Below are positions 5,796 through 63,025 of a stretch of DNA of 64,000 nt, one piece after another. This DNA is from an uncultured Methanosarcinales archaeon (GTDB lineage Archaea; Nanobdellota; Nanobdellia; Woesearchaeales; CAYSVS01), in assembly GCA_964479425.1 (NCBI GenBank), contig CAYZMD010000001.1:936-64935 (forward strand), given 5' to 3'. The notes beneath the pieces were generated by a model. That model was not told where the DNA came from. It ran no database searches and saw only the letters and a list, made by a program, of their open reading frames with translations. Both the position numbers and the translations under genes were made by a program. The first letter of the stretch is position 1, and every line of letters begins with the position of its first letter.

Positions 5796-6259
5796 TTTTT
5801 CTTTGCCCTATTATATGCTGTCCAGATTGTTTTTGGGTTTCTGTCTATCAATCTAGCAATATCTGTAAATCCTAAGTCATATTCTTTTTTTAGAAATACT
5901 GACATTGATTCTAAAGCAGATAATTTTTTCTTAAAAAACATTTTAATAGGAATATCAAAATCAGAATCATAAACGGTTATTTTATCTTTATTTTTTGCAT
6001 TATTATATGTTGTCCATATTGTTCTGTCGTCTCTATTCAAAATCTTAGCAATTTGACTATATTTATATTTACAATTTTCTTTAAGATATTTAACAACACT
6101 TTCTAGTATACTTAATTCTTTTGTAAAAGCAGATAAAGGAATTTTTTCTCTTCTTTCTTTTAATGAATTTGATTTGTTACTTAATTTTTTAAGAAGCATT
6201 TCTATTAATACCTCTTTATCTACGTTCTCTAGAACTTTTGCAATATTCTCTTTTTTCAT
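5792..6259 (-). CDS. Tandem helix-turn-helix domain protein (two ~45-aa HTH repeats, sigma-70 region 4/LuxR-like), putative DNA-binding regulator
   Basis: Internal duplication LSxLESxVKYLKE...IAKILNRDDRTIWTTYNNAK and LSALESMSVFLKK...IARLIDRNPKTIWTAYNRAKKK. Its stop overlaps the start of the giant gene (tcat at 5792-5795). Confidence 0.55.
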   Translation of the reverse strand: MKKENIAKVLENVDKEVLIEMLLKKLSNKSNSLKERREKIPLSAFTKELSILESVVKYLKENCKYKYSQIAKILNRDDRTIWTTYNNAKNKDKITVYDSDFDIPIKMFFKKKLSALESMSVFLKKEYDLGFTDIARLIDRNPKTIWTAYNRAKKK

Positions 6260-12600: not shown

Positions 12601-12619
12601 AAAAGAAAAAAATGTTTTT

Positions 12620-13573: not shown

Positions 13574-13588
13574 CTTTTCATCACCTTT

Positions 13589-14521
13589 CTAAGTAGGAAC
13601 TTTAATTATTTCAACTTTTTTCGAAATACTTTCCATATATCCATAATCAAGTTTGATTTCTAATGGTGTTTGGTAAGCAAATTTGTTTTCGCTAGGTATT
13701 ACAAATGTACAAAAAATAGTTGCTTTCCCATTAATCAATCTTACTTCATTGCTTGGACTACATTTTTCAGGTCTTTTTCCTGATAGTGTAACATAATATT
13801 TTGCTTTATTTAAATCATCATATTCTAAATCAAAAGGACATTCATGTATTCTTATTACTTTTCCTTTTCCTGCATTATTTACTTCAATTTTAAAATGTGC
13901 TTTATCTCCTATTGTATTTACTCTTACAGCGCTTACAGATACTGGACCTCCTTGCCCACTTCCCATTGGAACATCTCTTGGAACACATGCTTTTTCTTCA
14001 ATACTTATATCGTAAAATTTAGGATCAATACATACAATAGCATTAGATAAAGTTTGATATTCATAACACATTGTTGCAATAAGTGTTGGTTCATAGACAT
14101 CGGTTCCTGTTGGTAAATTGATTGAAGATGAACTAAATTCAATTGTTTCCATTTCTCCCTCTGTATTGTATTTTGTTCTACCTTCTAAAGGACCAAAACT
14201 TTTTTCGGTATCAATACCTCTTATTAAATTTTTATCATGTCCTCCTAAATAAATTTTCCCATTTGTTTTGTAGGCTCCTTTATTATTTATTTCAATAAGC
14301 ATATTAATGTTTGTTGTATCATATAGTCTAGATGGAGGCAAATCTTTCATAAAATCCATCGTTATTCCTTGTGTTCCTATATACACTTTGTCTGTTAGAA
14401 TTCCTCCTCCTGCTGTTTCGGTGCTTGTTTTTCTTAAATTAAATCTATCGCAACCTGTTAATAATAGTAAAGAAATTAATAACAATATAATCCAGACTCT
14501 TTTTTTTTTCATTTTATTCAT
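13589..14521 (-). CDS. Lipoprotein, paralog 2 of 3
   Basis: MNKMKKKRVWIILLLISLLLLTGCD lipobox. Motifs CYEYQT, GGPVSV, IKLDYGY. IEVNNAGKGKVIRI. Confidence 0.65.
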   Translation of the reverse strand: MNKMKKKRVWIILLLISLLLLTGCDRFNLRKTSTETAGGGILTDKVYIGTQGITMDFMKDLPPSRLYDTTNINMLIEINNKGAYKTNGKIYLGGHDKNLIRGIDTEKSFGPLEGRTKYNTEGEMETIEFSSSSINLPTGTDVYEPTLIATMCYEYQTLSNAIVCIDPKFYDISIEEKACVPRDVPMGSGQGGPVSVSAVRVNTIGDKAHFKIEVNNAGKGKVIRIHECPFDLEYDDLNKAKYYVTLSGKRPEKCSPSNEVRLINGKATIFCTFVIPSENKFAYQTPLEIKLDYGYMESISKKVEIIKVPT

Positions 14522-14554
14522 TATAAACCTATATTATAGTATATATAAATTTTT

Positions 14555-15478
14555 CTATTCTTTTACTTTAATACTTCCTTTATGTTCACTTCTATAATTA
14601 TAATTGAGCTTAACTGAAAAAATACTTTTGTAAACTCCTTCACTTCTTTCTATTAATGTTGAACATCTGAATGTACCTCTTTTTTCTTTTAATTTTACTT
14701 CCTTAGGTGTACATTCTAAATCCCTTATTCCTACAACAGCATCACTTATTATTATTTTTTCGTCAGTAACTTTTCCATCTCCGATATTACTTATTTCTAT
14801 GTCGTAATTAGCATATATACCACTACCTTTTGATGTTATATATTCTTTTATCTTTTTTACAGCCACGGGTGCTCCTTGATTATTTAGTGAGATTGTAGTT
14901 GGGTCGCAAGCGTCTTTCACAATTTTCATATGCTCATAGATATTTGGGTTTATGCAGACTTCTGTACTTGCTATTGTAGCATAAGGATAGTCTAATTCAA
15001 TAATATAAGGTTGTGTATATTCTTTGGCTCCATATTGTAGTTTTAAATTAACTATTCTAAATTCAATAATCTCTTGTTCTCCTTCTGGTAGGTATCTACT
15101 TTTTCCTGCAAGCGTAACCAATCTTTCGTCTTTATATGGAGAGAAGTAAAGAGAATTTAGTGCAGATAATATTACTTTTGCATCTGCAACATCTTCTGTC
15201 CCAGAATTTTTTAATTCCATTCCTATTGTGAATTCTTCTCCTTCAAAAATTTCTTTTGGAGGCATTCCTGTAATTTCTTTTATAGTTAGTCCATCATCTC
15301 CTTTTCTATAATCTTCTGTAGGCGGGACTTTTCCTTGTGCTGATAATTTACCAAAATTACCGAGTTTTAAATATTGACATCCACCTAGTAATATGACGAC
15401 AATTAATAAAATAATTATTTTTTTCATGCTTAAAAATCTACGATTTCTTTGATGCTGAAAATTTACAATTTTCATCAT
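14555..15478 (-). CDS. Lipoprotein, paralog 3 of 3 (alternative start 15427)
   Basis: MKKIIILLIVVILLGGCQ lipobox follows a 17-aa N-extension. Motifs DYPYAT, GAPVAV, KLNYNY. ELKNSGTEDVADAKVIL. Confidence 0.6.
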   Translation of the reverse strand: MMKIVNFQHQRNRRFLSMKKIIILLIVVILLGGCQYLKLGNFGKLSAQGKVPPTEDYRKGDDGLTIKEITGMPPKEIFEGEEFTIGMELKNSGTEDVADAKVILSALNSLYFSPYKDERLVTLAGKSRYLPEGEQEIIEFRIVNLKLQYGAKEYTQPYIIELDYPYATIASTEVCINPNIYEHMKIVKDACDPTTISLNNQGAPVAVKKIKEYITSKGSGIYANYDIEISNIGDGKVTDEKIIISDAVVGIRDLECTPKEVKLKEKRGTFRCSTLIERSEGVYKSIFSVKLNYNYRSEHKGSIKVKE

Positions 15479-17373
15479 GATACAAAATCACCTACTCGTA
15501 CATTATATTTTTTTTCAATGGTATATGAATATGTAACTCTTCCTTCAATATCTTTAGGCTCTTTTCTTGCTTTTGTTAGTTCAATTCCTAAATCATCAGT
15601 TTCATCAATTTTAAGTTGACAGGTCGCTATTCTTGTTTTTTTATTTTTTGTTATTTTACTAAAATCACTTTTGTATTCGTTAATAACCCAAGTTCTTTCA
15701 CCTGCATTCCATTCACTACATGTTTCTTCACTTTTTTTAGTAATTCCTGGAATCATATCAATTTCAATTCTTTTAATCTCTTTTATTTTTCCAACTTGGT
15801 TATTTGTTATTGAGTATGAAAAAGACAAATCAATATCTCCCGCAGGATTTCTTATGTTTGATATTATAGGATATGTTGGGGGCTGTCCGATAAAAAAGAC
15901 TAATGACGCAAATTCTTCTGCAGGAGTAAATGGAACATATATACCATTCTGAAAACATTCAGGACAACTTCCAAGGACTAAGGTCTGGATTAATTTATCT
16001 TTATTTTCTTTGTTTAATTTTTCATCTCCAACAAAAACTTTTGTTAATATGGATGTAGTTGTAACATCTTTTACGTAAAATACAAATTCTGCTGTATATT
16101 TTCCTTTCCCGAGTCGCTCAATTGGTCTACAAACAATTTCTGCTTCTAGTGGATAATCAGTGTCTTCAATCTTTGGAATAATAAAACTTGCATAAGAATC
16201 TACACTTCCTTTTATTGTCTTTTTATCTTTTTCACTTGGTTTAAAAAAACAACTCATTTCAACTGGAATTTCTTCTATAGCACTTCCATATTCTAATGCA
16301 ATTTGATATCCGCTAATAGGATCAATGTTTGCAATTGTTTCAGCAAGTGGGTATACTGATGATTTTTTTATTCTAAAAACCAACCCTTTTGCTCTTTTTG
16401 ATGTTGCTACAGTCATTTTTTTCTCTTCTTCTTCAGGAGGATGCATACAATCATAATAGTTTTCTCCATACCACAAACTTCTCCATGTACAATACATTGG
16501 ATTGGCAATAACTTTCTTAGTATCTTCAAGCTGGTCTTCTCGCGCTAACGCAACTTCTTCTGATTGACCAAATGCTGAAATTTGTTCCCCCATACCGCTT
16601 ATTGCAATTACAAATATTACAAAGTAAACAAGCGCTAGGCTTGTAATCGCTTTAGAAAATCCTTTCTCTGTGGTTGTTCTTGTATAATATGCAAATAATA
16701 CCCACCACGGCCAGAAAACAGAAAGAAAAAATGTATTTCCTGCAAGCCCTGCAATTGTTACAATTTCTGTATGTAAAAAAGTTAGAATTGCTGCAAATAT
16801 TGCTGTTGGTCCCAATAAATCAAGTGTATAAAAAATCATTAAAATATTAAGGAACATATAGCTAGTTCTTAATCCTGTACTGCTAACGTCAACAATATAT
16901 GGTAGTACCCAGATGAGTATTCCAAACAATAGAATTTTTTTATATTTTTTATCTTCAGATTCAGAAAGTTTTTGTTTTTGTGATTTTGCTTTACCTACTC
17001 CTTTTTTTAATCCCCATAAGCCCGCTGCTCCAAGGCCACCCAATGCCCATTTTATTCCCTTGCCTATGCCTTTAACTCCTTTTTTTAATGTAGGCGTATA
17101 AACATCAGTATAGTTGCCTACTGTTTCGGCACCTGATTTTACTGCATTTACTCCTGTTGATACTTTATCTTTAGTCCATTTGTGTGTATCTTTTGCCCAT
17201 TGAGGAGTTGCATTTTGAGCAGCTTCTTTTGCTACTTGCCCTACTCCTTTAGTCCACAAAGTTTCTTCTTGTAGATTTACTTTTGCAAGCTTTTCTTTCC
17301 TATCTGCATCTTTTTTTTTAGCTTCTTTATCCCATTGTTCTTGAAGGAAAGTACCTTCTTCTTCTTTAGCCAT
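15475..17373 (-). CDS. Polytopic membrane protein: Lys-rich cytoplasmic N-domain, ~4 TM helices, ~380-aa extracytoplasmic C-domain
   Basis: Hydrophobic segments ILLFGILIWVLPYIV, MFLNILMIFYTLDLLGPTAIFAAILTFL, TFFLSVFWPWWVLFAYY, ITSLALVYFVIFVIAISGM. ATGA-style overlap with the downstream lipoprotein gene. Confidence 0.6.
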   Translation of the reverse strand: MAKEEEGTFLQEQWDKEAKKKDADRKEKLAKVNLQEETLWTKGVGQVAKEAAQNATPQWAKDTHKWTKDKVSTGVNAVKSGAETVGNYTDVYTPTLKKGVKGIGKGIKWALGGLGAAGLWGLKKGVGKAKSQKQKLSESEDKKYKKILLFGILIWVLPYIVDVSSTGLRTSYMFLNILMIFYTLDLLGPTAIFAAILTFLHTEIVTIAGLAGNTFFLSVFWPWWVLFAYYTRTTTEKGFSKAITSLALVYFVIFVIAISGMGEQISAFGQSEEVALAREDQLEDTKKVIANPMYCTWRSLWYGENYYDCMHPPEEEEKKMTVATSKRAKGLVFRIKKSSVYPLAETIANIDPISGYQIALEYGSAIEEIPVEMSCFFKPSEKDKKTIKGSVDSYASFIIPKIEDTDYPLEAEIVCRPIERLGKGKYTAEFVFYVKDVTTTSILTKVFVGDEKLNKENKDKLIQTLVLGSCPECFQNGIYVPFTPAEEFASLVFFIGQPPTYPIISNIRNPAGDIDLSFSYSITNNQVGKIKEIKRIEIDMIPGITKKSEETCSEWNAGERTWVINEYKSDFSKITKNKKTRIATCQLKIDETDDLGIELTKARKEPKDIEGRVTYSYTIEKKYNVRVGDFVS

Positions 17374-17374
17374 C

Positions 17375-18577
17375 TTAGTCTTTTTCGTAATAGTCTATGT
17401 TGAATTCTCCAACATAAAAGTCATTTCTTGGCAAAATTTTAACAATGTTTGTTCCTTGATCAACAAAAATTTTAATCTTATCACTATACCCTACATCTGT
17501 AGTATCCAGAACAGTTTCATGACCATTGATTATTATTCTTGCTTCTTTTTCTTCTATGTCGTCTGCAAATCTCATTGTTAAATTGACATAAGCATTGTTT
17601 CTTTGTAGTTCACTATACTGCGTACTATTCAGATAGAAATCATAGATAAAGTCTCTTGATTCTTTTAAGTCACTTTTTACTTGAACTTGGTCTAGTAAGT
17701 AGCTTCCTTTATCTGCACTAATTTCAAGAATATTTTCTCCTTGAGCAATACAATAAGGTAGAATTTCATGTATACTTAATTGATTACAATCAGGAACTCC
17801 TGCAAAAACTTTACAGTCATTCAGATTAACTCTAAGAACTCCAACATCTCCAGGAGTACAGTCTGGAAAGTATCTTAATTTAATTCTATTCAAATTATCT
17901 TTTTCAAATTCATCTACAATAAATCTTAATTTGCTACTTCGTGCACTAACATCGGTTAAGTCTCCTGTTATTTGTACATTTTCTAGGCTGAACTCATGTG
18001 TTTTCCAAAATGCAGCTCCTACGCTAGATGCGCTAAATTCTATTAAATTTTGGTTTTTTAAGAAGTCCTTGGATATTTTTATAGGCGATATCTGTCCTTC
18101 TGATAATTCTTTATTGAAAATTTCATTACCATTAATTTTGATGTTTAACATACCAGCACTAGATATTATTTCAAAATTTAATAATAAATTTGCACTATTC
18201 TCTATGTCTTTCAATGTAAAACTAAAATTATCTTTCTCGTCGCTAAAAACTGCTCTTTTTACATAAATACTGTTTTTTTCTTTTAGAACAGTTCCTTCTG
18301 TTTTAGTATACAAATAAACCGAGGCGAGATCATGCTCTACTTCTTTTTGTTGTAGATATGTTAGTTTGCCAGGTATTTCAGAAAGTAAATTGGTTTGTAT
18401 ATAATCTTCGCTATCAGTAGACACGCTATTACTTGAACTGGAGCTATCTCCTTCAAGGATTCTTTGTCTATCTTCAGGAGGAATAAACATGATGTAAACA
18501 ACAATAAGAATTGTTATAACAACTACGAGTACCGCAGCACTTCCTCCTCCTTCTTGACCTCTTTTCTTTCTGAACAT
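17375..18577 (-). CDS. N-terminally anchored extracytoplasmic protein (signal-anchor)
   Basis: MFRKKRGQEGGGSAAVLVVVITILIVVYIMFI, then a ~360-aa Ser/Asn-rich soluble domain. The ORF-track start is GTG; the first ATG is at 18577. One nt from the next gene. Confidence 0.55.
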   Translation of the reverse strand: MFRKKRGQEGGGSAAVLVVVITILIVVYIMFIPPEDRQRILEGDSSSSSNSVSTDSEDYIQTNLLSEIPGKLTYLQQKEVEHDLASVYLYTKTEGTVLKEKNSIYVKRAVFSDEKDNFSFTLKDIENSANLLLNFEIISSAGMLNIKINGNEIFNKELSEGQISPIKISKDFLKNQNLIEFSASSVGAAFWKTHEFSLENVQITGDLTDVSARSSKLRFIVDEFEKDNLNRIKLRYFPDCTPGDVGVLRVNLNDCKVFAGVPDCNQLSIHEILPYCIAQGENILEISADKGSYLLDQVQVKSDLKESRDFIYDFYLNSTQYSELQRNNAYVNLTMRFADDIEEKEARIIINGHETVLDTTDVGYSDKIKIFVDQGTNIVKILPRNDFYVGEFNIDYYEKD

Positions 18578-18755
18578 AAATATCACCTTTTTATATTATT
18601 TTATATTATAGAGAACTTTGATTCATTTCTAAAAAATGTAGTTTTCATTTATTTATCATACATCAAAGTTCGCTATATAGGGTTATTAAACCCTCTATAA
18701 TCTTTATTACTTAAAAATAAATAACTTTATATATAAATATATTTCTATTTTGAAC

Positions 18756-31317: not shown

Positions 31318-31749
31318 CTAAATCATCTTTTTTACTAAATCGTTCATTTTATCTGCTCTATAACCAAGAGCCCCACCCATAGTATATGGTGTTTTTATTC
31401 CTTTCTTTTCATAACCGCCCTTAGGTGGGTGCATTCTAAATACTGGTTTTATTTTTTTACCATTAATTTCTATATATTTTTTAGAATAATCAATTTTACC
31501 TGATTTATCTTTTAGAGGACCTTTGTATTCTTCTCCTCTTTTTTCCATTAACAATGTATATGTTTCATCATCAATTTCTCCCCATGCAACATAATCTTTT
31601 ACTTTTACTAACATACCTTTCATTGACGGTGTATTTTCAAAAACTGCACAAACATGTTTGTTAAGCAGCTTTAAAACAATTAATGTTTTTCTTATATTTA
31701 CATCAATTCCAATTTGTCCTCTAATTCTTATTGCAGCTAGTTTACTCAT
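31318..31749 (-). CDS. rpl30: Ribosomal protein uL30
   Basis: LAAIRIRGQIGIDVNIRKTL. Confidence 0.85.
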   Translation of the reverse strand: MSKLAAIRIRGQIGIDVNIRKTLIVLKLLNKHVCAVFENTPSMKGMLVKVKDYVAWGEIDDETYTLLMEKRGEEYKGPLKDKSGKIDYSKKYIEINGKKIKPVFRMHPPKGGYEKKGIKTPYTMGGALGYRADKMNDLVKKMI

Positions 31750-32546
31750 TTTTCTTCATCCTTAATTTTTTCTTCAACTTTAATTTTTCCTTCAATTATT
31801 CCGATTTTTTCAATAGCTTCTGGTCTTATTTTTGTAGTCATAAGAGACTTTAAAGCGGCCATACATGCTTTTATTAAATTTATTTTACTTGTTGTTTTTC
31901 CAAAACTTTTACTCCATACATCCTTAACTCCAGCCATACCTACTATTTTTTGAATAACTTTTTCAGCAACTAGACCAGTACCTTTTGGTGCAGGAAATAA
32001 ATGAACTATAACACTTCCACATTTTCCTGTTACTGCAAAAGGAATTGTGTGTGGTTCTCTGCATCCACATTCCCATGAACCGCAGCCTCTTCTAATTTTT
32101 ATAAGATTAAGTTTAGCATTTCTTGTAGATTTCTCTCGTGCAGGAACTGTCTCTTTACTCTTTCCATACCCTGTTCCAACAAGACCATTTTTATTTCCAA
32201 CTAAAGCATAAGTTGCAAACTTAGGTTTGTTACCTTCTCTAGTTTTCTTTTGTGTTTGTTTAAAGACTCTTCTTTGTCCTCCTCCAAACTTACCTTTTGA
32301 TTGTCCAATAAGTAATAATTCAGTATCTAAATCAGGAATCAGAATATCTACAATTTCTGTCTCTGATATGTTAAATCCGCTATCTAAAATAACTTCTATA
32401 TCTGTAATTTCTTTATTTTTAACTTGTTTACCAAGTGATGTTTTAGGTTTCCATTCTTCAGCGTTTAATTTAGGCTTTTCTCTTTTATCTCTACGATTTT
32501 TATCCCCTCTCTGAGGAGTTCTTCTTCTTTTCTTTTCTTCAGCCAT
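31746..32546 (-). CDS. rps5: Ribosomal protein uS5 with K/R-rich N-terminal extension
   Basis: GNKNGLVGTGYGKSKE ... GTGLVAEKVIQKIVGMAGVKDV. Confidence 0.85.
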   Translation of the reverse strand: MAEEKKRRRTPQRGDKNRRDKREKPKLNAEEWKPKTSLGKQVKNKEITDIEVILDSGFNISETEIVDILIPDLDTELLLIGQSKGKFGGGQRRVFKQTQKKTREGNKPKFATYALVGNKNGLVGTGYGKSKETVPAREKSTRNAKLNLIKIRRGCGSWECGCREPHTIPFAVTGKCGSVIVHLFPAPKGTGLVAEKVIQKIVGMAGVKDVWSKSFGKTTSKINLIKACMAALKSLMTTKIRPEAIEKIGIIEGKIKVEEKIKDEEK

Positions 32547-41878: not shown

Positions 41879-42847
41879 TTATAATCCTTCCAAATGAGTG
41901 TAGTTTATTTCAGGTGCTTGTGTAGGCACTTTTTTGCTAGGTCTGATTGAATGATTGAATCTTATGATTCTTTTTCTTGGACCAGGCACACTACCTTTAA
42001 CTAATATATAACTATTTTTAACAACACCAAATCTTTTAATTCCTGCTTTAGATTTAACTTCTTCAGGATTATCGCTAATTTTAATTATTTGATGATTATA
42101 ATGTGTTCTTAGATAATATCCTTCTTTTCCAGCATTAGGATTTCTCCACATTGTTTGATTTTCTCTATTCCAAGCTCCTGCTGGGGACGCTGTTCTCTTT
42201 CCTTTCTCGGATTTATGCTGTTTAATAGAAACACCAAATCTTTTTACAACACCACAGAAACCTTTTCCTGTAGTTACGCCGTGTAGGTCAACTTGCTGTC
42301 CTTCTTTGAATATATCTTTAACTGTAATTTCTTTACCTAACATTTCTTCTGCATATTTTGCTTTTTCATCTTTACTTCCGCCAATCGCCAATTCAAAGAT
42401 ATCTGGTATTTTTTTACCGATACCTGTTAATTTAGGTTGTGTATATACTATAAGATGAATATTGTCAAAGTCAATATCTTTAGAATCTTGTTTTTTCTTT
42501 GGTTTAGTTACTTTTTTTAGAATATCTTTGTCTAGGTTTTCAGCAAGTTTATCATGAACCGCCTTTATACCATAACTAGTTGTTTTATAGTATCTTATTG
42601 CCATAACTTTCATTGGTGGGCATTCAATTACCGTAACTGGAATTTGAATGTCTTGACCTTTTGTTAATGTTTTAGCTCTATTATCTGTAACTATTAGATG
42701 CATCATTCCTGCTTTGTATCCAGCAAATCCTAGTGCAACTGGTTCTTTAATATCGGCCCAAGCTCTAACTAGTGCTGTCTGTTTCTTGGCTCTTCTTCTT
42801 GGCCAAAATTGCATTGTTCCAAATCTCGGATTTTTTCTTGTAGGCAT
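41879..42847 (-). CDS. rpl3: Ribosomal protein uL3
   Basis: HLIVTDNRAKTLTKGQ ... GKGFCGVVKRFG ... WNRENQTMWRNPNAGKEGYY. Confidence 0.9.
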   Translation of the reverse strand: MPTRKNPRFGTMQFWPRRRAKKQTALVRAWADIKEPVALGFAGYKAGMMHLIVTDNRAKTLTKGQDIQIPVTVIECPPMKVMAIRYYKTTSYGIKAVHDKLAENLDKDILKKVTKPKKKQDSKDIDFDNIHLIVYTQPKLTGIGKKIPDIFELAIGGSKDEKAKYAEEMLGKEITVKDIFKEGQQVDLHGVTTGKGFCGVVKRFGVSIKQHKSEKGKRTASPAGAWNRENQTMWRNPNAGKEGYYLRTHYNHQIIKISDNPEEVKSKAGIKRFGVVKNSYILVKGSVPGPRKRIIRFNHSIRPSKKVPTQAPEINYTHLEGL

Positions 42848-42879
42848 GTTTTATCCTCAAATTAACCTATTATGTAAGC

Positions 42880-42935
42880 TTTTCGTTAGAAACAGTTTTA
42901 TTTATCAAAACTGTACTGAAAAAGCTTTTTTCAGG
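42880..42935 (-). promoter_or_regulatory. Two adjacent hairpins in the 5' leader region of the rpl3 operon
   Basis: AACAGTTTTatttatcAAAACTGT and CTGAAAAAGCTTTTTCAG perfect palindromes, 35-90 nt upstream of the rpl3 ATG. Confidence 0.3.
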
Positions 42936-43138
42936 CTGTTTATGACGGGAATTTAATTGAATTAAATACCCTTCTTTCTCTTTTTTTACATAGAAATTAT
43001 GGGGCATTTATAAAGCTTACTGTTTCTTACACTAAACCTCGAGTATTAATGAGATTGTATGTGTCTTTAGGTATATTCTCAACATTTAAATATTACTTCT
43101 TTATCTTTTTGTTAGATTTTAATATATGAGGTATCAAG

Positions 43139-43825
43139 ATGGATGAAATTGTTATTAGGCTAAGGCCAAAGCATGTCGAGAGATTAATATTTATCGTAGT
43201 TATTTTATTGTTACTTGGTGTAGTTTTTTGGCAAAGAGGATTAACACCATTTTCAACAGAAACAAAAACAACTGCCTCAGCAGTTGCTGAAGAAGTAAAG
43301 GCTGCAGATACTGTCGCAACAAAAACAGAAGTCGCGACTGAAGAAGCAGTAGAATCTCTTGTTAAAGAAGACCCCGAGAAAATAGAAGATCCCGTTGTAG
43401 AGGAGCCTATTGTAGAAGCAGAAGAAGAAATAGTAGCTGAAGAGGTAATTGATAACACACCTAAAGCAACTTCAGGTAAGAGAACTTTTACTATTACTGA
43501 TATTGAAACTACAATTAAAGGTGAGGATTGGGCAAAATTAAACACTTTTAATTTAAAGATTGAAAATGGTTTGTCTGGAATTAATATTACTTATAAAGTA
43601 TATATCTATAATTCAGGAGATACTGCTTCTGATAATCCTTTTGAAACTGTAATTCTAAGACAGATTGAAGATGGAGAAATTTATGATGAAGTACAAAAGA
43701 TTGCAGAGAAGGTGCACGGAGAAAGTTTCAATGAAATTGATGAAGACAAGAAATTAAAGGTTGTCTTTGAAAATTCTGCAGGAAATACTTTAGAAACCAT
43801 AGTCATGAATTTTAAAGCATCTTAA
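43139..43825 (+). CDS. Membrane-anchored acidic extracytoplasmic protein, unknown function
   Basis: N-terminal TM LIFIVVILLLLGVVFW, then an acidic Ala/Glu/Thr-rich linker and a ~130-aa C-domain. Confidence 0.5.
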   Translation: MDEIVIRLRPKHVERLIFIVVILLLLGVVFWQRGLTPFSTETKTTASAVAEEVKAADTVATKTEVATEEAVESLVKEDPEKIEDPVVEEPIVEAEEEIVAEEVIDNTPKATSGKRTFTITDIETTIKGEDWAKLNTFNLKIENGLSGINITYKVYIYNSGDTASDNPFETVILRQIEDGEIYDEVQKIAEKVHGESFNEIDEDKKLKVVFENSAGNTLETIVMNFKAS

Positions 43826-43841
43826 TTTTTTTTATTTTTTT

Positions 43842-45191
43842 TTAATTATATTCTATTTCGTATTTTTCATCTGGATTTTTCTGTTTCTTAGTTTTCTTCT
43901 TATCTCCTGAAAAAAAAGTTTTTCTTCTAGAATATTGTAAAGGATTTCTTACTTTATTACATAAATTATCTGGAGAACAAACCTGTAAATCTTTATAGAA
44001 TGTAGAAGTACAATTGTGAGGTAAAACTCTCTTTTTATTTTGTTTATGATATCTTATTTGTCCTTTTATCATTACTTCTCTTAATGGTTCGGGATTAGCT
44101 TTATTCCATTCTACTAACCTTTTTTCAATCATTTCATGACTCCATCCAGAGGATGCCATAAAATTAACTAAACAAAATAAAGCCCTTTTCCTTCCATCTG
44201 CAAGTCCTTCTAACATTTTTTTAATGCAAGGTGGAAATAAATCTTCAATAATTGCTTCTTCTGGAATTTCGTACTCCTTTTTGTCTTCTACAATTTGTTT
44301 ATATTCGTCCTCTATTTGCGGTTCAAAATCATATGCCTGAACAAATAAATTCTTAGCTTCTCCCTCAATTGCACTTTCTCTGTCTAAAAACTTTATTGAA
44401 AAATCATTCACATTCTCAGGCTTTGCTTGTTTCTTACTAAAACTTAGTATTTTATCTAATTCCACAGGAATGCTGACTAGTCCAGATTTTTCATTAAATG
44501 AATAGTTATGTCTAAGTAAATGCCTTGAAGAAATTAGAATAGTATCAATTTCTAATACTAAGAAAGGATCAAACTCTCCTTTATCCATTATTTCATCTAT
44601 TCCGCTCTTTTCTTTTATTGTTTCAAAAGAGTCCTTGATCATCATTTTTTTAAGATGCCCTCTAATCATATCTTTAAGGTAGGCAGCAATTCTTCTTGGA
44701 GCTTCAGGAAATAATTTTCTTATTTCTTGATTACTAACTGTTTTAGGAAATGCTTCAAATGGCACGGCAATATGGTATCCATGATTTCCAGAAAATTTCA
44801 CACTGACAGAATCTATACCATGATGTTTTAGTGCATGCACTAGTAGGTGTGCTGCCATTCCGCTATATCCCAAATCTTTACAGTCAATATCAAGTATTAA
44901 ATCCCATCCACTTCTTAATGTTTCTATCTCATTCTTTTTCATTAGTGGATCAATAGCAAGAGGGTTATTCCAAGTCTCTTCAGAAAAATGAAAGGAAGTT
45001 ATGCCTTGTTTTACTAATTCAAGAATATCTCCTTCATACATGATTGTATCTGGTCTTCTTGCATAGCCTTTTCCGCCATAGCTACCAACAACTTCTTTAT
45101 TCTGGCTAATTCTAACTATCTCTTTTTGAACTTCCTTTCTAGAATAATGTTTGAGTACAATATTTTTATCAATCTCAATCATGTCAGCCAT
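43842..45191 (-). CDS. priS: DNA primase catalytic subunit PriS fused to a PriL-like C-terminal (Fe-S) domain
   Basis: AEP motifs LILDIDCKD (DxD) and SGNHGYHIAV. The C-terminal LFPPCIKKMLEGL ... CLVNF ... C ... C resembles the PriL-CTD FPPCM region. ATG at 45191 (MADMIEID). Confidence 0.7.
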   Translation of the reverse strand: MADMIEIDKNIVLKHYSRKEVQKEIVRISQNKEVVGSYGGKGYARRPDTIMYEGDILELVKQGITSFHFSEETWNNPLAIDPLMKKNEIETLRSGWDLILDIDCKDLGYSGMAAHLLVHALKHHGIDSVSVKFSGNHGYHIAVPFEAFPKTVSNQEIRKLFPEAPRRIAAYLKDMIRGHLKKMMIKDSFETIKEKSGIDEIMDKGEFDPFLVLEIDTILISSRHLLRHNYSFNEKSGLVSIPVELDKILSFSKKQAKPENVNDFSIKFLDRESAIEGEAKNLFVQAYDFEPQIEDEYKQIVEDKKEYEIPEEAIIEDLFPPCIKKMLEGLADGRKRALFCLVNFMASSGWSHEMIEKRLVEWNKANPEPLREVMIKGQIRYHKQNKKRVLPHNCTSTFYKDLQVCSPDNLCNKVRNPLQYSRRKTFFSGDKKKTKKQKNPDEKYEIEYN

Positions 45192-45299
45192 ATGTTTTTT
45201 AATTTTTAGCAATCTTATATAGTTTGTTATAATACAAACAATAATTAATGAAAAGTAAATTCTTAGCAAATATAGTATTATAATAGTATTATAAGAGTT

Positions 45300-47516
45300 T
45301 TAATTAACATACATCTCATCAAATATCTGTTTTAGGTTCTTTGCTTTAATTGTTCCAATTTTATCTATCTTTTTTAATTCTTCAACATCAGCATTAACAA
45401 TATTCTTTACACTACCAAGCTGTTCTAATAGGGGTTTTGCTAGCGTCATTCCAATTCCAGGAAGGCTACTTATCAAATATTCTTGTTGCTCTTTGAAACT
45501 TTTTGGTTTCATGCTTCCGTGTGGAGTGAAAGCATTTCCATCTTCTTTTTGTTCTCTTTTAGCAATCATTGCGAGCATTGCAGCGCTCTCTTTAAAATCT
45601 TTAGTGAATAATATAGGTATACCATAACTCACAGTTATTGTCGCTAATAAGCCCCTAATCGCATTCGGGTGTATGTTTTTAATTCCATATATATCTTGTT
45701 TTCCTTCAATTAAAATAATCGGTCTAGAAAAGTTTTGTTTAAGACTTTTTATCTGTTCCATAATCCGTCCATCAAGGAGACTATTTACAAAATCTTCTTG
45801 ATTTTTGTATTCAATAGCGCACCTATTGCTCAGGACATAATCTCCTACATCTAATTTTTCTAATTTAATTTCGCAACCATTTTCTATTAAATTCTTAATT
45901 ATTGCATTTCCTTTTTCTCTATAATCAACATGAATTTTAATTTTGTCATACAAATATTTGTTAAGATTACTCTGTTCTTTATTCTCAGTCCTAAACTTTT
46001 TTCTCTTGAAATTATTTTTTAATAATTCTAAATTTCTATACATCCTATTTATTTTATGATGAGCACTCCATCTATATGCTTCATCTCTTGTGCCTTGTGC
46101 AAGTAGGATTAACACTCTGCCCTTATCGAGCCTTCCAGTCCTTCCTTTTCTTTGAATTGTTCTAACAGCGCTAGGGATTGGCTCAAAGAATACGACTAAG
46201 TCAACTTGTGGAATATCAAGACCCTCTTCTCCCACACTTGAACTTACTAAAACATTGAATTTTTTATTTCGAAATCTATCAAGCATTTCAATTTGTTTTT
46301 TTTGTGATAATCCAGACCCATTTCTTTTAGCTTGTCCTACAAATAATTCTGCATTAATATTATCTATAGAATTCATTTCCTCGACTATTCTTTTTGCATT
46401 ATCTCTATATTGGTTGAAAACAATTATTTTTGTTTCTGGATTTTTTTTATATTCTTGTTCAATTATTTTTCTTAATTCGCTAAGCTTAGGATGCTCTATG
46501 TCTTTATCATACAATGCTTTAGTTTTAATTAAAGCACTTCTAAAATTAAGATCTTTTGCTAAATTAATTGTTGCTTTTGTTTTTGTCGTATAACTTTCTC
46601 TTTGAATTTTATCTAAGTATTGATATAGTGCATAAATCCCTTGCGTTTCTAATAATTCAAGACCATGATGCACTTTCATAATCTCTGCTAGTAAACTTAT
46701 CGTCCTCAATATTTCTATACTTTTATTCCCAGACATTATCTCTTTTTTAACTTGCGCTTGCATGCCAAGCAAGTCTCTTTTAGAACTTTCGAGTACAATA
46801 TTACTAATAACTCCCATCTCTTTTATATCGCCAATTTTAGTCCTAATACAATCTTTCAAATACTTTTGAATTTCTTTGAATAGCGGTGGAAGTTGAACTT
46901 TTACCCACTCAACTTTTACATCTTGGACATATGGTTTTACGTCTGGATCTTTGTCTGTTCTTATTTCAATCTCGTCTATATATAAATTTTGACAGACTTC
47001 ATTAATCACATCTAAATCGCTACCAGGAGAAGCAGTTAGTGCTAAAATTCGAGGATATCTAGCTTTTTCATTGTATTGTTTACTTATCCAAACATATGAA
47101 TATTCTTTAACAGCTCTATGTGCTTCATCAAATACCATTAAGCTAACATCATCCAATTTTATTCTATTTCCTATAATATCATTTTCAAGCCCTTGAGGAG
47201 TCGTTGCAATTATCTGTTTTTCTTTCCATAACTCTTGCCTTTTTTCTGGACTTATGCTGCCAGTAAACATTGCAATTTTATTATCATCAATAGTGGTCTT
47301 CGCAATAAAAACTTGCATTATTTGTTCAACTAGAGGTTTAGTTGGTGCAAGAATTAGAACTTTTGAATTAGGGTATTGTTTTAATCTTTGTATTGCGAGC
47401 ATTAAAGCAATCGCAGTTTTACCCATTCCAGTCGGGAGAACAACTAATGTATTATGGTTAACAGTTGTCCCAAATATTGTTTCTTGGTAAAGTCTTGGTT
47501 CAAATTCTCTTAGCAT
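45300..47516 (-). CDS. hef: Hef helicase-associated ERCC4 (XPF-family) nuclease
   Basis: SF2 helicase core (LPTGMGKT, DEAH-like FDEAH, QRKGRTGR), an ERCC4 nuclease domain (DYREKGNAIIKNL ... GDYVLSNRCAIEYKNQEDF), and a C-terminal HhH2. Confidence 0.8.
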   Translation of the reverse strand: MLREFEPRLYQETIFGTTVNHNTLVVLPTGMGKTAIALMLAIQRLKQYPNSKVLILAPTKPLVEQIMQVFIAKTTIDDNKIAMFTGSISPEKRQELWKEKQIIATTPQGLENDIIGNRIKLDDVSLMVFDEAHRAVKEYSYVWISKQYNEKARYPRILALTASPGSDLDVINEVCQNLYIDEIEIRTDKDPDVKPYVQDVKVEWVKVQLPPLFKEIQKYLKDCIRTKIGDIKEMGVISNIVLESSKRDLLGMQAQVKKEIMSGNKSIEILRTISLLAEIMKVHHGLELLETQGIYALYQYLDKIQRESYTTKTKATINLAKDLNFRSALIKTKALYDKDIEHPKLSELRKIIEQEYKKNPETKIIVFNQYRDNAKRIVEEMNSIDNINAELFVGQAKRNGSGLSQKKQIEMLDRFRNKKFNVLVSSSVGEEGLDIPQVDLVVFFEPIPSAVRTIQRKGRTGRLDKGRVLILLAQGTRDEAYRWSAHHKINRMYRNLELLKNNFKRKKFRTENKEQSNLNKYLYDKIKIHVDYREKGNAIIKNLIENGCEIKLEKLDVGDYVLSNRCAIEYKNQEDFVNSLLDGRIMEQIKSLKQNFSRPIILIEGKQDIYGIKNIHPNAIRGLLATITVSYGIPILFTKDFKESAAMLAMIAKREQKEDGNAFTPHGSMKPKSFKEQQEYLISSLPGIGMTLAKPLLEQLGSVKNIVNADVEELKKIDKIGTIKAKNLKQIFDEMYVN

Positions 47517-49560: not shown

Positions 49561-49944
49561 CTAAAGAAGACCATCTTCCAATAATTTAGGAATTAATATT
49601 GTTTCAATTGTATATCTCATTTTGGGCAGATTATCTCTTGAAAACCAATCACACCCACCAATTTCTTGTGATGGAATAGGAGTTCCTCCATGTTTAACAA
49701 AATAACAATATACTTCTTGTTTTTGTTTATATACTTCATTAAAAGTTTTATAATTAATATATTCCCGTGTCGATACCAAATTTATTTTCAATTCCTCAGA
49801 AAGTTCTCTTTTAAGAGCTTCTTCATGGGTTTCACCTTCATCAACTTTTCCTCCCGGTGTCCAATAAACTTTTTTTTCTTTGTCTGTTACTAGAAGAATC
49901 TTTTTATCTTGAATAATTACCGCTGAAATACGATTAGCTAACAT
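49561..49944 (-). CDS. NUDIX hydrolase (stand-alone)
   Basis: Nudix box GGKVDEGETHEEALKRELSEELKI. Confidence 0.8.
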   Translation of the reverse strand: MLANRISAVIIQDKKILLVTDKEKKVYWTPGGKVDEGETHEEALKRELSEELKINLVSTREYINYKTFNEVYKQKQEVYCYFVKHGGTPIPSQEIGGCDWFSRDNLPKMRYTIETILIPKLLEDGLL

Positions 49945-49990
49945 AGAATTTGGGAAGGGTATGTAATTTAAAAGTTTTATGCAACTAAAC

Positions 49991-50004
49991 TCAAATCAAT
50001 TTGA
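49991..50004. promoter_or_regulatory. 14-bp palindrome TCAAATCAATTTGA (16 bp with flanks CTCAAATCAATTTGAG), putative operator
   Basis: The identical 14-mer recurs at 50750-50763. Each copy lies 37-38 nt upstream of the ATG of a wHTH-NUDIX paralog and next to a TATA-like stretch. Confidence 0.55.
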
Positions 50005-50041
50005 GGAATTCTTTATAAGGTTTCTAATTTTTCTTATTTTT

Positions 50042-50737
50042 ATGAATGATACTCAAAGGCAAATTCTATTGAAACTTATTCATCATCCTAAATTATCATT
50101 TACACAATTATTAGCTGGTAGGCGTGATTCTAATTTATTTGCTTATCACCTGACTACGTTAAAAGAGAAGAATATTATAGAATTAAATGATGGATTTTAT
50201 TCTCTATCTGACGAAGGTAGAAAGATGTCTGCTTTTATTGAGGGAGATACTGGTAAAAAGGCATTATTTCCTACGTTTGTTCATGGGCTTATTATAGAAA
50301 AAGATGGTAAAATCTTGGTACAAAAACGACTAAAAGAACCATTTTATGGATATTGGAGTTTAATCTCCGGAAAGATTAATTTAGGACTGAATATTGAAGA
50401 ATGTGCAAATCATGATCTTACAGAAGAAACTGGATTAATTGCAAATAGTAGTAAGATTATAGGTATTAACCAGATAAAAACACTAAAGGATAATAATCTT
50501 TCTTTTCATTGTATAGTATTTTTAGTAAAACTGTTTGGTATTCAAGGAGAGCTTATTGAAAAAACTCATAAAGGAATAAACAAGTGGATGACAATTGAGG
50601 AATATAAAAAACAGAAAAGGTTTCCGGATCCTTGGCTAGATGATGTGCTTAATGCTAAGGAATTCATTTTTTTAGAGACTGAAAGAACATTTGAAAATAA
50701 AGAGTTCGTAGATTTTAAAATTATTAAACAAAGGTAA
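50042..50737 (+). CDS. Winged-HTH + NUDIX fusion protein, putative Nudix-related transcriptional regulator, paralog 1 (the ORF-track start 49979 would include the operator)
   Basis: N-term QRQILLKLIHHPKLSFTQLL ... HLTTLKEKNIIE wHTH. Nudix box SGKINLGLNIEECANHDLTEETGL. Confidence 0.65.
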   Translation: MNDTQRQILLKLIHHPKLSFTQLLAGRRDSNLFAYHLTTLKEKNIIELNDGFYSLSDEGRKMSAFIEGDTGKKALFPTFVHGLIIEKDGKILVQKRLKEPFYGYWSLISGKINLGLNIEECANHDLTEETGLIANSSKIIGINQIKTLKDNNLSFHCIVFLVKLFGIQGELIEKTHKGINKWMTIEEYKKQKRFPDPWLDDVLNAKEFIFLETERTFENKEFVDFKIIKQR

Positions 50738-50749
50738 CACCAATTAAGC

Positions 50750-50763
50750 TCAAATCAATTTGA
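50750..50763. promoter_or_regulatory. Second copy of palindrome TCAAATCAATTTGA, with downstream TATA-like ttttatatttatata
   Basis: Exact repeat of 49991-50004. 38 nt upstream of the ATG at 50802. Confidence 0.55.
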
Positions 50764-50801
50764 CTTTTATATTTATATACTTCTAGATTTTTCCCTAAAT
50801 C

Positions 50802-51509
50802 ATGGGAAACGAAATCCAAGAATACATCATCAAAAAATTAATTCATAATCCTAATATGAGGTTTAATGAATTGCTGGATAAAAAATTTGAAAGTAATAAG
50901 TTTTCTTATCATATTAAACAATTAGAAGCAGTTGGATTAATTGAAAAAAAAGATGAAACCTATAGTTTAAGCCATGAGGGTAAAAAGTATTCAACCTTTA
51001 TTGAAGGAAATACTGGGGCTAAAGCCAAAGCTCCTTTGTCTGCTGTAATTATGTTTGCGATTAAAGGAGATAAAGTTCTTTTAATGAAAAGGTTAAAGGA
51101 ACCATTCTATGGTTGTTCTGGAGGACATGGTGGAAAAATTAAATTTAACCAATATCCTGATGAATGTGCAAAAGAAGAATTCAAAGAGGAGACAGGTCTT
51201 GATGCGGATGTTGAACTAAAAGGAATATATTTATCAAAAACATATAATAACAAAAAACAAAGTTATAATCATCAATTTTATATTTACTTATGTACTAATT
51301 TAGAGGGTGAATTGATAGAAAAAGATAGAGAAGGAGAGAATTATTGGATAGAAATTTCTAAAATTTATGAATTGTATATTTTTCCAGATGTTCCTAAATT
51401 GATAGAAATGTGCACTCGCCCAGGTTTTACAGTTTTTGAAGCTGATAGACACCAAGAAAATGACGAATTTAAAAACATGGTAATCAGAAAACACATTCAG
51501 TATTCATGA
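50802..51509 (+). CDS. Winged-HTH + NUDIX fusion protein, paralog 2
   Basis: IQEYIIKKLIHNPNMRFNELL ... HIKQLEAVGLIEK wHTH. Nudix box GGKIKFNQYPDECAKEEFKEETGL. Confidence 0.65.
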   Translation: MGNEIQEYIIKKLIHNPNMRFNELLDKKFESNKFSYHIKQLEAVGLIEKKDETYSLSHEGKKYSTFIEGNTGAKAKAPLSAVIMFAIKGDKVLLMKRLKEPFYGCSGGHGGKIKFNQYPDECAKEEFKEETGLDADVELKGIYLSKTYNNKKQSYNHQFYIYLCTNLEGELIEKDREGENYWIEISKIYELYIFPDVPKLIEMCTRPGFTVFEADRHQENDEFKNMVIRKHIQYS

Positions 51510-60288: not shown

Positions 60289-61389
60289 TTATGGTAACCA
60301 GCTTTTAGGATTATTTAACTTTTCAGGCAAATAATCTGAAATTACGAAATTAAGACCGTGCGCTGCTAACGCTTGCTGCTCTGCTCTTATTTTCATCTTT
60401 GCTAAATCGAGTAAGCATTTTTGCCATTCTTTATGATGATTAACAAATGGATCATTTTTAATTCCATCTTTTATCCTCTTTAAATCAACTTCTTTTAATG
60501 GATGTGATGGCAAATCATATTTTGTTATATCTTGCGCTGTTATTCCGAAAAATTTAGCTTTAGGTACACAAAAATATTCATTGATATGTGCTGCATTTCC
60601 ACTTCCAACCTTTAGTGTTCTGTAGATATTTAACCATCCGTATGGGTCTCCATCAGTAAATACATATACAGGAATCTTTTTCTCATCTGATAATTTTCTG
60701 ATAAATCTTCGAGTAGCTCTTGTTGGAACCCCTCCAAGAGAAATAAGAATACCGTTTGCTTTCTTCCAAAATTTATGTTTTACTAATCTTTGAAACATAC
60801 CGGCTGTCTCGATTGCTAAAACAAAGTCAGCATTAGTTTCAAATTTTAATTGTTCTACTGACGAAGGTATGCTATAAGCTCCGCTTCCAAATTTAGTACA
60901 ATCAATTTTTATTTCTTTTCCAGTTTCACTATCATAATCAATAACTGTTAGTTTTCCTGCAATATCTCCGCCCTTTTCTTCTGGCAAAAATCCCATTTGT
61001 TCTCTATTTACTCTCATCATGGCTTCAATATCATCCATAACAGTATCTGATTCGGGTTGCTCTTTGAATCTTGCTTCAGCCCAATTTTTACTTACATAAT
61101 ACGCTTCTCTTTTAGTTGCAATATCTTTAGTTTCAACTAGTTGTTTACTAAGCGCCATCATTCTTAGAGTTTGAGCAAATGTTTTTACTGTGTTTGCAGT
61201 CAATGTTCTTGACTTCATTTTACCAATTAGTTCAAAGAATCCTGCTTTCGCTTCATATTTTACATTACTTAATGATCTCAAAGGCATGCTAATCTCGGGT
61301 GGAATCTTTTTAATAATCTTTTTATATATATCATTAGAAACATCTTCTATCTCTTTGATGATATTTTTATTCTGTTTACTCATCATCAT
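60289..61389 (-). CDS. top6A: DNA topoisomerase VI subunit A (Spo11 homolog)
   Basis: Active-site region [10 protein letters not shown]. Toprim [11 protein letters not shown] (DxD). Track start is GTG; ATG at 61389 overlaps the top6B end. Confidence 0.85.
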
Positions 61390-63025
61390 CACCCTTATCT
61401 TCTGGATCTTCTTTTCCTATTTTTGCAAATTCTTCGTCGTAGTCTTCATTCACTACTTTTATCTCTTCTAGTTTTCCACGCTTTTGTTCCAGGATTTCTT
61501 CTAGCATATGTACTATATTGCTTTCTTCAGAATCTTTTAATTTTAGAATTTCTTTAAGTCCAATTGCAACATGTGGAATATATTTTTCAATGTAGCTTCT
61601 TTTTTTAGCTTCGTCTGAAATATTTTTTCTTTTTCTAACGTAGCTTGCTAATTTTCTTCCAATTTCTTGCAAAGCTAATTTTATTTCTTTGATTATTTCA
61701 GGATAATGAGCAATTGCTTCTTTACTTTCACTAGTAAATGGAACCCATACCGATGCAATATGTACAACAATTGTACATGGTCCAATAGGCATATTCCCTG
61801 AACTTTGATTCATTCCATAACTTCTCCAGCCTGTTGTTACGACTGATTTTGTAACCGCGCAAGCTCCTTGTTGGAATAATAAAGGTACTCTATTTGCAAA
61901 TCTAACAAGCCTGATTGCATCGTCTCCTTTTTGCTCTCCGCCGTATGCTACTGCAGCTTCAATTGCGAAAGGATTACCTCTATATACAACAGGTGCTCTA
62001 GAAACAGAAGCATAAAATTCTGCATTAATTTCTTTTCTTAATCCTTTTTCGAGTAAGTCTGCTCCTATTGGAGAAATACAATCTGTTGGTGGATTAATTA
62101 ATTTAGTTTTCTTAATACCTTCCATTAACTTTTCAGCCATGTCTCTTGACATTTTTGTTGGTTTTGTTTTAGGAAGAAGTGCAGAATTTTCGCAAATTTG
62201 CTTTGCTGTTCCCGCTCCAACTCTTGAGAATTCTGTTGTTAAGAATTGTTGTAGAGTTTTTTCTTGAGAATATTTCATCATTCTCATTAATATTCCAAGT
62301 TCAACTCCATATGGATGTGGTTTAATCTCTTTTGGTTCTGCAGGTAAAGAATTTGCAGCTCTTGGAAAAATAATTTGTTCTGCTTTTGGATTAGTATATA
62401 TTATTGTAGCATGTGGATTTGAAATTGCTGTTTGTTTTAGGTATTCATCAATGCTCTGAAGTCCTTTGTGATAGCTTGCTTCAATATCTATTTCAATTTT
62501 TGTACCATGCTCTTTTGCCCAATCAACTATATCATCTTTAATAATTTCTGGAGCATTTTTTTGAGTATTAATTTTTAATTCATAATAATGTGCATCTTTT
62601 CCTTCTCCAATCGTAGAAGTTATTTTTGCAGGTCTTCCAGTAGTTAATTGTCCATACATGACACTTGCAGAAATACCAATACCTTGCTGTCCTCTACTTT
62701 GTTTCATACTATGAAATTTACTTCCATATAATAATTTAGCAAATATTTTAGGGATTTGTGCTTTTACAATTCCAGGTCCATTATCTTCAATAATAATTTT
62801 GAATCTATCATTTCCCATGTCAATAACTTCAACAATGATTTCTGGTAGAATTCTAGCTTCTTCGCATGCATCAAGTGAGTTGTCTACTGCTTCTTTTATA
62901 GTAGTCATTAAAGATTTTCTTTTGTTATCAAAACCTAATAAATGTCTATTTTTTGCAAAGAATTCACCTACTCCAATATCTCTTTGTTTTTTTGCTAATT
63001 CTTCAGCGCTAACTTTTCCTACCAT
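61376..63025 (-). CDS. top6B: DNA topoisomerase VI subunit B (GHKL ATPase)
   Basis: Bergerat fold [15 protein letters not shown] and G-rich GQQGIG boxes. 549 aa. Confidence 0.9.

Follow-up and report, generated by a model that had tools for sequence, protein, structure and literature searches.

A gene on the minus strand of the 64-kb stretch of DNA analysed here (the window) very probably encodes the primase that serves cellular DNA replication in a Woesearchaeota-type archaeon of DPANN cluster 2, and is orthologous at that same level of confidence to the monomeric primase NEQ395 of N. equitans. A preliminary description of this DNA had proposed that the small primase subunit PriS and the C-terminal domain (CTD) of PriL are joined in a single ORF. 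Pfam, NCBIfam and PDB matches indeed put both domains within one chain of 449 residues.

43842..45191, minus strand: PriS-PriL(CTD) primase gene, complete, 449 aa (ORF list and translation)
43842-43844, minus strand: primase stop codon

Iyer et al. 2005 (cited in PMC3914693) already pointed out the fusion of a PriS catalytic domain to a PriL Fe-S domain in N. equitans, in agreement with the earlier mention of such a protein in Nanoarchaeum-like genomes. Raymann et al. 2014 described the fusion in Nanoarchaeota, Nanohaloarchaea and a Parvarchaeum, and discussed its standing as a shared derived character (PMC3914693), and Dombrowski 2020 found it in all surveyed genomes of DPANN cluster 2 and Undinarchaeota (PMC7414124). 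A 2026 preprint reports that a two-subunit primase is missing from these lineages, regards the monomeric primase as a synapomorphy, and proposes replacement of the ancestral enzyme by a mobile-element primase (bioRxiv 10.64898/2026.06.17.729505). At the biochemical level, NEQ395 was purified by Schneider, Bergsch & Lipps 2023 as a monomer that carries a [4Fe-4S] cluster and is an active RNA primase (PMC10250227). Its RNA primers are about 9 nt long and begin at a triplet whose central base is T (PMC10250227). The primase described here is an ordinary member of this well-described and biochemically characterised family, and its type is already known. The compact primase for biochemical study that the preliminary description saw in it is already available in NEQ395 (PMC10250227).

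Reading frame and catalytic domain

The longest reading of the primase frame opens at a TTG codon at 45269 (43842..45269), and the ATG at 45191, internal to it, yields the 449-aa product. We favour this ATG as the start because three observations converge on it: public gene callers arrive at an identical 449-aa product on three contigs among the matches listed (two from ENA samples, one from JGI), in a 32-sequence alignment the N-termini of the 31 homologs fall at this position or close to it, and an archaeal TATA-box-like element lies a short distance upstream.

45214..45221, minus strand: TATATAAG, archaeal TATA-box-like element, about 26 nt upstream of the ATG (read from the sequence)

This element sits in a spacer of 108 nt between hef and the primase ATG. 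It is a putative primase promoter, and the mRNA would then be leaderless or have a short leader.

The single frame itself could in principle be an artefact, in which a misassembly or a frameshift error merged adjacent priS and short priL genes, and one nanohaloarchaeal genome does have its short primase split over two adjacent genes (Raymann et al., PMC3914693). However, the three contigs with the identical ORF come from three samples, a 15.7-kb contig matches the window at 99.987% identity, and hundreds of homologs are single ORFs that align across the junction. On this evidence, an artefact of this kind was rejected as having next to no probability.

The N-terminal part of the protein has the features of an AEP/PriS catalytic domain.

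44322..45191, minus strand: N-terminal AEP/PriS catalytic domain, residues 1-290 (PF01896, TIGR00335, NF001641; AF2; Foldseek)
44883..44891, minus strand: AEP motif I, D101-I-D103, metal-binding acidic pair (invariant in the 32-sequence alignment; counterpart of NEQ395 D87/D89 by motif order and spacing)
44772..44792, minus strand: AEP motif II (sxH), S134-G-N-H-G-Y-H140 (S134, G135, G138 and H140 invariant in the 32-sequence alignment)
44511..44546, minus strand: AEP motif III and nucleotide-binding residues D216, R223, H224 and R227 (invariant in the 32-sequence alignment)

AEP motifs I (hhhDhD), II (sxH) and III (hD) are all intact. The strings DIDCKD and SGNHGYHIAV, quoted in the preliminary description as catalytic motifs, are present at residues 101-106 and 134-143 and their motif residues are invariant; a third quoted string, LFPPCIKKMLEGL, spans residues 318-330. 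The protein has six cysteines, at positions 104, 322, 340, 394, 405 and 411. C104 is nearly invariant but forms part of the catalytic DIDC motif, and since it is the only cysteine of the PriS part, the Cys/His zinc-binding cluster of canonical PriS is lacking.

Sequence profiles recognise this domain weakly. PriS models overall match residues 113-252 (TIGR00335 at E 1.2e-4), and PF01896 reaches 24.2 bits on residues 113-244, just below its cut-off of 26.8. Searches of the PDB by sequence, whether with the protein itself or with a profile of 32 sequences, retrieved P. abyssi PriL only and no PriS chain. The catalytic domain was therefore assigned by motifs and fold. The AF2 model, which was built on the alignment, has high pLDDT over the catalytic domain, and Foldseek against the PDB matches this domain at E 1e-7 to 1e-5, with hits that include Prim-PolC/LigD polymerase, human Pri1 and the PriS proteins of P. 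furiosus, P. abyssi and P. horikoshii.

The best Foldseek matches of the whole model are bacterial, namely M. smegmatis Prim-PolC and LigD polymerase domains; their rmsd is below that of the PriS matches, which follow within one order of magnitude in E. Along with a sub-threshold match to Pfam LigD_Prim-Pol (4.4e-4), this could hint at a repair or damage-tolerance polymerase of the PrimPol or LigD type, acting with Hef at stalled forks and not as replicative primase. The position of hef directly upstream and in the same direction, here and in five relatives, would fit such a role. However, the fused PriL-type Fe-S domain is a hallmark of replicative primases, and the window holds no other primase. 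NEQ395 is the sole primase found by genome analysis in N. equitans (PMC10250227), and according to published surveys the two-subunit enzyme is missing from these lineages. Moreover, Gins51 of the classical replication cluster adjoins the gene in distant relatives, and no ligase or Ku gene lies beside the primase in the window or at any of the loci examined. We considered a repair function quite improbable in view of these points and rejected it in favour of a replicative primase.

The PriL Fe-S domain, linker and tail

The C-terminal part of the replicative primase proposed here corresponds to the Fe-S domain of the large subunit, and is separated from the catalytic domain by an acidic stretch.

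44241..44321, minus strand: acidic inter-domain linker, residues 291-317 (low pLDDT; variable in homologs)
43896..44240, minus strand: PriL C-terminal (Fe-S) domain, residues 318-432
44226..44237, minus strand: F319-P-P-C322, predicted first [4Fe-4S] ligand (four residues invariant; aligns to P. abyssi PriL FPPC; NEQ395 C289 by position)
44175..44192, minus strand: R334-K-R336-A-L-F339, predicted site for the initiating NTP or 5' primer end (K335, R336 and F339 invariant; NEQ395 R301/R303/F306 offsets)
43959..44012, minus strand: C394-x10-C405-x5-C411, predicted [4Fe-4S] ligands 2-4 (aligned to the P. abyssi PriL C-terminal cysteines)
43845..43895, minus strand: Lys-rich C-terminal tail, residues 433-449 (pLDDT < 50)

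Pfam DNA_primase_lrg (PF04104) scores 26.2 bits on residues 304-410, above its cut-off of 22.4, and covers model positions 99-213 of 266. The match to PDB 9f26_B (P. abyssi PriL) has an E value of 6.8e-8, and it pairs the cysteines of the FPPC and C-x10-C-x5-C blocks one to one. Both results bear out the resemblance to the PriL Fe-S domain noticed in the preliminary description. The HMM comparison suggested as a check points the same way: beside the weak PriS matches further upstream, the NCBIfam PriL models align to residues 296-443 at E 4e-11 (NF002588 model positions 204-350 of 360). As the PriL models align from about position 204 of 360 onward, only the C-terminal half is represented, and the PriL N-terminal domain that docks to PriS is absent. 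Foldseek on the CTD alone gave weak matches, at E 0.65 or higher.

Conservation among the homologs singles out four of the six cysteines. C322, C394 and C411 are the same throughout the 32-sequence alignment, and C405 recurs in at least 90% of the sequences (31 of 32), the exception having a Cys one position later. C340 is not conserved. The count of conserved cysteines, likewise proposed as a check, thus stands at four (C322, C394, C405 and C411), and these are positioned as predicted [4Fe-4S] ligands.

With a mean pLDDT of 84.8, the AF2 model consists of two confident domains with a low-confidence acidic stretch (293-307) between them, where pLDDT drops below 50 at residues 293-299 and 301-307. 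This linker varies among homologs in both length and sequence. The distance from D216 to C322, which spans it, is 106 residues here and ranges from 101 to 114 in the 32-sequence alignment (median 107). Basic tails of varying length are found in most of the aligned homologs; as a guess, the Lys-rich tail might serve for non-specific nucleic-acid binding. A PIP box (Qxx[LIVM]xx[FY][FY]) was sought by eye in the QYSRRKTFF C-terminal region and the tail, and none was seen there.

Comparison with known primases and proposed mechanism

NEQ395 shares the architecture found here, with an AEP domain, a linker and a PriL Fe-S CTD in that order and without a PriL N-terminal domain, and its host belongs to the same super-group. 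The functional residues of NEQ395 were mapped onto the present primase by motif spacing taken from the published paper, and not by sequence alignment, as follows.

NEQ395 D87/D89: here D101/D103 (motif spacing)
NEQ395 S119/H125: here S134/H140 (S-to-H spacing of 6 in both)
NEQ395 D194/H202/R205: here D216/H224/R227 (D +8, +11 in both)
NEQ395 C289: here C322 (motif spacing)
NEQ395 R301/R303/F306: here R334/R336/F339 (+12, +14, +17 from the first Cys in both)
NEQ395 C364/C376/C384: here C394/C405/C411 (motif spacing)

The cysteine intervals are near-identical, at 75/12/8 in NEQ395 and 72/11/6 here. The distance from the motif II serine to the motif III aspartate is 75 residues in NEQ395 and 82 here, and that from motif III to the first cysteine is 95 versus 106, about 11 residues longer in the present protein. 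Overall, NEQ395 has 393 residues against 449 here, and the Lys-rich C-terminal tail is a difference as well. Models of NEQ395 contain a long linker helix, whereas the linker here is acidic and modelled with low confidence. The hosts also differ, that of NEQ395 being hyperthermophilic while the host here looks low in GC and is probably mesophilic, the latter judging only by its relatives.

Mutational data on NEQ395 offer a guide to the roles of the mapped residues (PMC10250227). The D87/D89 double mutant is inactive, and S119/H125 and D194/H202/R205 are essential. R301/R303/F306 mutants elongate but do not prime. Initiation requires the PriL domain as well as its covalent linkage, and a shorter linker leads to early abortion. 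The cluster itself is dispensable for priming in vitro, and single Cys mutants still prime.

By analogy, the AEP domain would bind the template, the metal ions and the elongating NTP, with the metals on D101, D103 and D216 and the NTP contacted through H68, S134, H140, H224 and R227. The CTD would hold a [4Fe-4S] cluster on C322, C394, C405 and C411. The flexible acidic linker could act as a covalent tether that stands in for the PriL N-terminal domain, and the enzyme would synthesize RNA primers as a monomer. As in NEQ395 and other AEPs, R334, R336 and F339 of the CTD may hold the initiating nucleotide and the 5' primer end at the active site, leading to formation of the dinucleotide. During subsequent elongation by the PriS domain, the CTD would stay on the 5' end of the primer. 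We propose that with the CTD held there, the geometry of the linker limits the distance that can open between the two domains and in this way keeps the RNA primer short. With its somewhat longer, acidic linker and its low-GC, probably mesophilic background, the protein is a possible comparator to NEQ395 for relating linker length to primer length, which would be an incremental gain.

The canonical PriS-PriL primases (P. abyssi 9f26, P. furiosus 1g71, human p49/p58) are homologous to the present protein in catalytic fold and motifs. Their PriL Fe-S CTD is likewise homologous to the CTD here, including the FPPC and C-x-C-x-C ligand pattern. In contrast to the two genes of the canonical enzyme, a single gene is found here, and the product is much more compact, without the PriL N-terminal PriS-docking domain. 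A separate priS and priL pair, the mark of the two-subunit type, is not what the window contains: it has one fused ORF and no second gene.

Gene neighbourhood, family and host lineage

The primase is flanked by two genes that are read in the same direction.

45300..47516, minus strand: Hef-type helicase-nuclease, upstream co-directional neighbour (Pfam DEAD, Helicase_C, ERCC4, HHH)
41879..42847, minus strand: ribosomal protein L3, downstream co-directional neighbour and first gene of an L3-L4-L23-L2-S19 operon (Pfam Ribosomal_L3)

A convergent ORF of 228 aa without a family match lies between primase and L3 in the window. Besides the window, the co-directional order of hef, primase and L3 operon is found in five of the eight relatives examined (loci L004, L005, L006, L008 and L009). 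The primases of these five are 39-57% identical to the one here, and one to four small genes are sometimes inserted. An Aenigmarchaeota locus does not have this order. A literature search on the Woesearchaeota primase with Hef found no paper.

To look for further primases, one local HMM was built for the PriS part and another for the CTD, and both were run with filters off against all 473 stop-to-stop segments of the 64 kb. The primase gene scored 1e-143 with the PriS part and 1e-63 with the CTD part, the next best segment had E>0.1, and no second primase was found. Pfam scans of the other large ORFs of the window likewise revealed no primase domain. The remark in the preliminary description that no separate priL is in view consequently holds for the whole 64-kb window.

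The neighbourhood also bears on whether the gene could be an integrated mobile-element primase, comparable to the fusions of PriS and helix bundle in PolpTN2, pRN1 ORF904 and RepB'. The helical domains of pRN1 ORF904, RSF1010 RepB', pTN2 PolpTN2 and Sulfolobus PriX have no reported four-cysteine Fe-S site, unlike the CTD here with its four PriL cysteines. The first three of these proteins are encoded by plasmids or viruses, and PriX is a separate third subunit. Furthermore, PolpTN2 shows no sequence similarity to the primases of nanosized archaea (Raymann et al., PMC3914693). On both sides the present gene has core housekeeping neighbours, Hef and the L3 operon, in an order that is kept in relatives at 39-57% primase identity. 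GC content is flat across the locus, at about 0.30-0.31, and Pfam scans of the large window ORFs found no integrase, SF3 helicase or element boundary. An ancient mobile-element origin of the family, if there was one, would not make the present copy a mobile-element gene. With core-gene flanks and four PriL-type cysteines, a mobile-element primase was rejected as highly improbable.

A different arrangement occurs in two more distant relatives (L010 and L011), where the gene order is primase-Gins51-(L44e)-S27e-aIF2alpha-(Nop10). A supercluster of PriS-Gins15 and L44E-S27E-aIF2alpha-Nop10 has been described for archaea with canonical PriS. The position beside Gins, S27e and aIF2alpha is therefore shared with canonical priS, which is a small argument for an origin of the fusion in place. 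It is conceivable, if on balance rather unlikely, that the PriL-CTD was captured onto a resident priS and that the fused gene later moved beside the ribosomal operon in Woesearchaeal lineages. If true, an origin in place would speak against the 2026 proposal of replacement by a mobile-element primase. The move beside the ribosomal-protein operon, if it took place, possibly couples expression of primase and Hef to ribosome synthesis.

The cellular primase assigned here belongs to a large family. A word-indexed search gave 2,709 homolog clusters (90% identity) at E<=1e-3. The best 120 of these mostly have more than 90% query coverage and 49-72% identity. Where a lineage is named, it is Candidatus Woesearchaeota, Nanoarchaeota or Nanoarchaeia, and many entries read 'hypothetical protein'. 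An exhaustive search of representatives at 50% identity gave 660 matches at E<=1e-3, of which 315 reach E<=1e-30; most matches form one stretch over residues ~10-440. One representative from Aenigmarchaeota matches over its full length at 38% identity, and among GTDB representative genomes a scan gave one relative, from Woesearchaeota, that is 52% identical. Taken together, two domains in one ORF, the AEP motifs, four cysteines, the absent PriL N-terminal domain, full-length relatedness and the host lineage place the protein within the family of fused primases.

The host lineage follows from more than the primase. Named homologs of the L3 from the window all belong to Woesearchaeota, Nanoarchaeota or an unclassified archaeon, in a search that omitted the identical L3 protein despite the 99.987%-identical contig, which we took as an index quirk. 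In addition, a probable uS5 gene (31746..32546, minus strand) carries GQSKGKFGGGQR, fitting the G...GK.GG..R insertion motif described in uS5 of cluster 2 lineages (bioRxiv 10.64898/2026.06.17.729505). The names of the primase and L3 homologs and the uS5 motif support a Woesearchaeota-type DPANN archaeon as the host, and with it the DPANN affiliation suggested earlier from the fusion.

The fused primase gene is a reliable single-gene marker of DPANN cluster 2 (Woesearchaeota/Nanoarchaeota sensu GTDB). Automatic annotation still misses the family: the identical protein is nameless in the sources read, many homologs are entered as 'hypothetical protein', and the PriS Pfam model stays just below its threshold.

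Gene order around the fused primase

The fused primase of the window lies in a co-directional array on the minus strand, in which hef, encoding a helicase-nuclease, is followed by the primase gene and then by the L3-L4-L23-L2-S19 ribosomal operon.

41879-47516, minus strand: hef, fused primase and start of the ribosomal operon
43842-45191, minus strand: fused primase, 449 aa
41879-42847, minus strand: ribosomal protein L3

This order is retained in five of the eight relatives examined (loci L004, L005, L006, L008 and L009), in some cases with one to four small genes interposed, and at primase identities of 39-57%. A literature search for Woesearchaeota, primase and Hef jointly found no paper. 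Directly past the hef stop codon, the spacer between hef and the primase gene carries two tandem copies of the 11-mer TATAATACTAT (45270-45295, minus-strand reading). The repeat could be a terminator element, a promoter element or a chance occurrence in DNA of 30% GC.

Two more distant members of the primase family display a different primase neighborhood. At L010 (4001-7263) and L011 (4001-7151), the fused primase gene is followed by the genes for Gins51, S27e and aIF2alpha, with L44e and Nop10 as variable components. The same arrangement is known as the classical supercluster of archaea with a canonical PriS, where PriS-Gins15 is joined to L44E-S27E-aIF2alpha-Nop10. Hence, the fused primase of these two loci looks like a positional ortholog of canonical PriS, which would argue against the proposal that the monomeric primase is a mobile-element primase that replaced the original enzyme.

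Inteins, insertions and additional domains of the homologs

In the homologs P0134, P0143, P0177 and P0238 (883-1019 aa), the primase is interrupted by an intein with Intein_splicing and LAGLIDADG domains, which in three of the four lies inside the PriS part, near the catalytic motifs. The window primase contains no intein. It also represents a short form, lacking an insertion of ~60-80 residues that many relatives harbor at the position of its residues ~190-206. The relatives that carry it include P0122 and many primase homologs that match in two stretches in a search of representatives at 50% identity. The insertion of P0122 gives weak, below-cut-off matches to the zinc-ribbon models DUF5816 and Zn_ribbon_8. 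P0126 and P0192 extend further at the C-terminus, with methyltransferase and alpha/beta-hydrolase domains; these additions may stem from fused gene calls.

Ribosomal proteins and other genes of the window

Operon position and sequence indicate that one further product is probably ribosomal protein uS5. Its residues 81-92 (GQSKGKFGGGQR) fit the G...GK.GG..R insertion reported as a uS5 marker of DPANN cluster 2 lineages (bioRxiv 10.64898/2026.06.17.729505). A protein search with the window L3 listed no identical sequence (best match 73%), while the same collection holds L001, a contig that shares 99.987% identity with the window in this region; the missing match probably reflects an indexing gap rather than biology. 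Among the window ORFs scanned, no GINS, PCNA or MCM was seen; other information-processing genes are listed together with uS5 and a long ORF that runs off the window start and probably encodes a giant surface protein.

3-5807, minus strand: ORF of at least 1,935 aa with a CBM96 carbohydrate-binding module and DUF7379
10644-11600: RFC small subunit
31746-32546, minus strand: probable uS5, 266 aa
54816-56644: archease and RtcB
60289-63025: topoisomerase VI A and B, adjacent

Six successive ORFs at 11797-18586 (267, 317, 310, 307, 632 and 403 aa), five of them on the minus strand, match no Pfam family at E<=1e-3. A cluster of three NUDIX-domain genes occupies 49561-51509: one, of 127 aa, lies on the minus strand, and the other two, of 252 and 235 aa, are tandem paralogs that both begin with a DUF7347 domain at the N-terminus.
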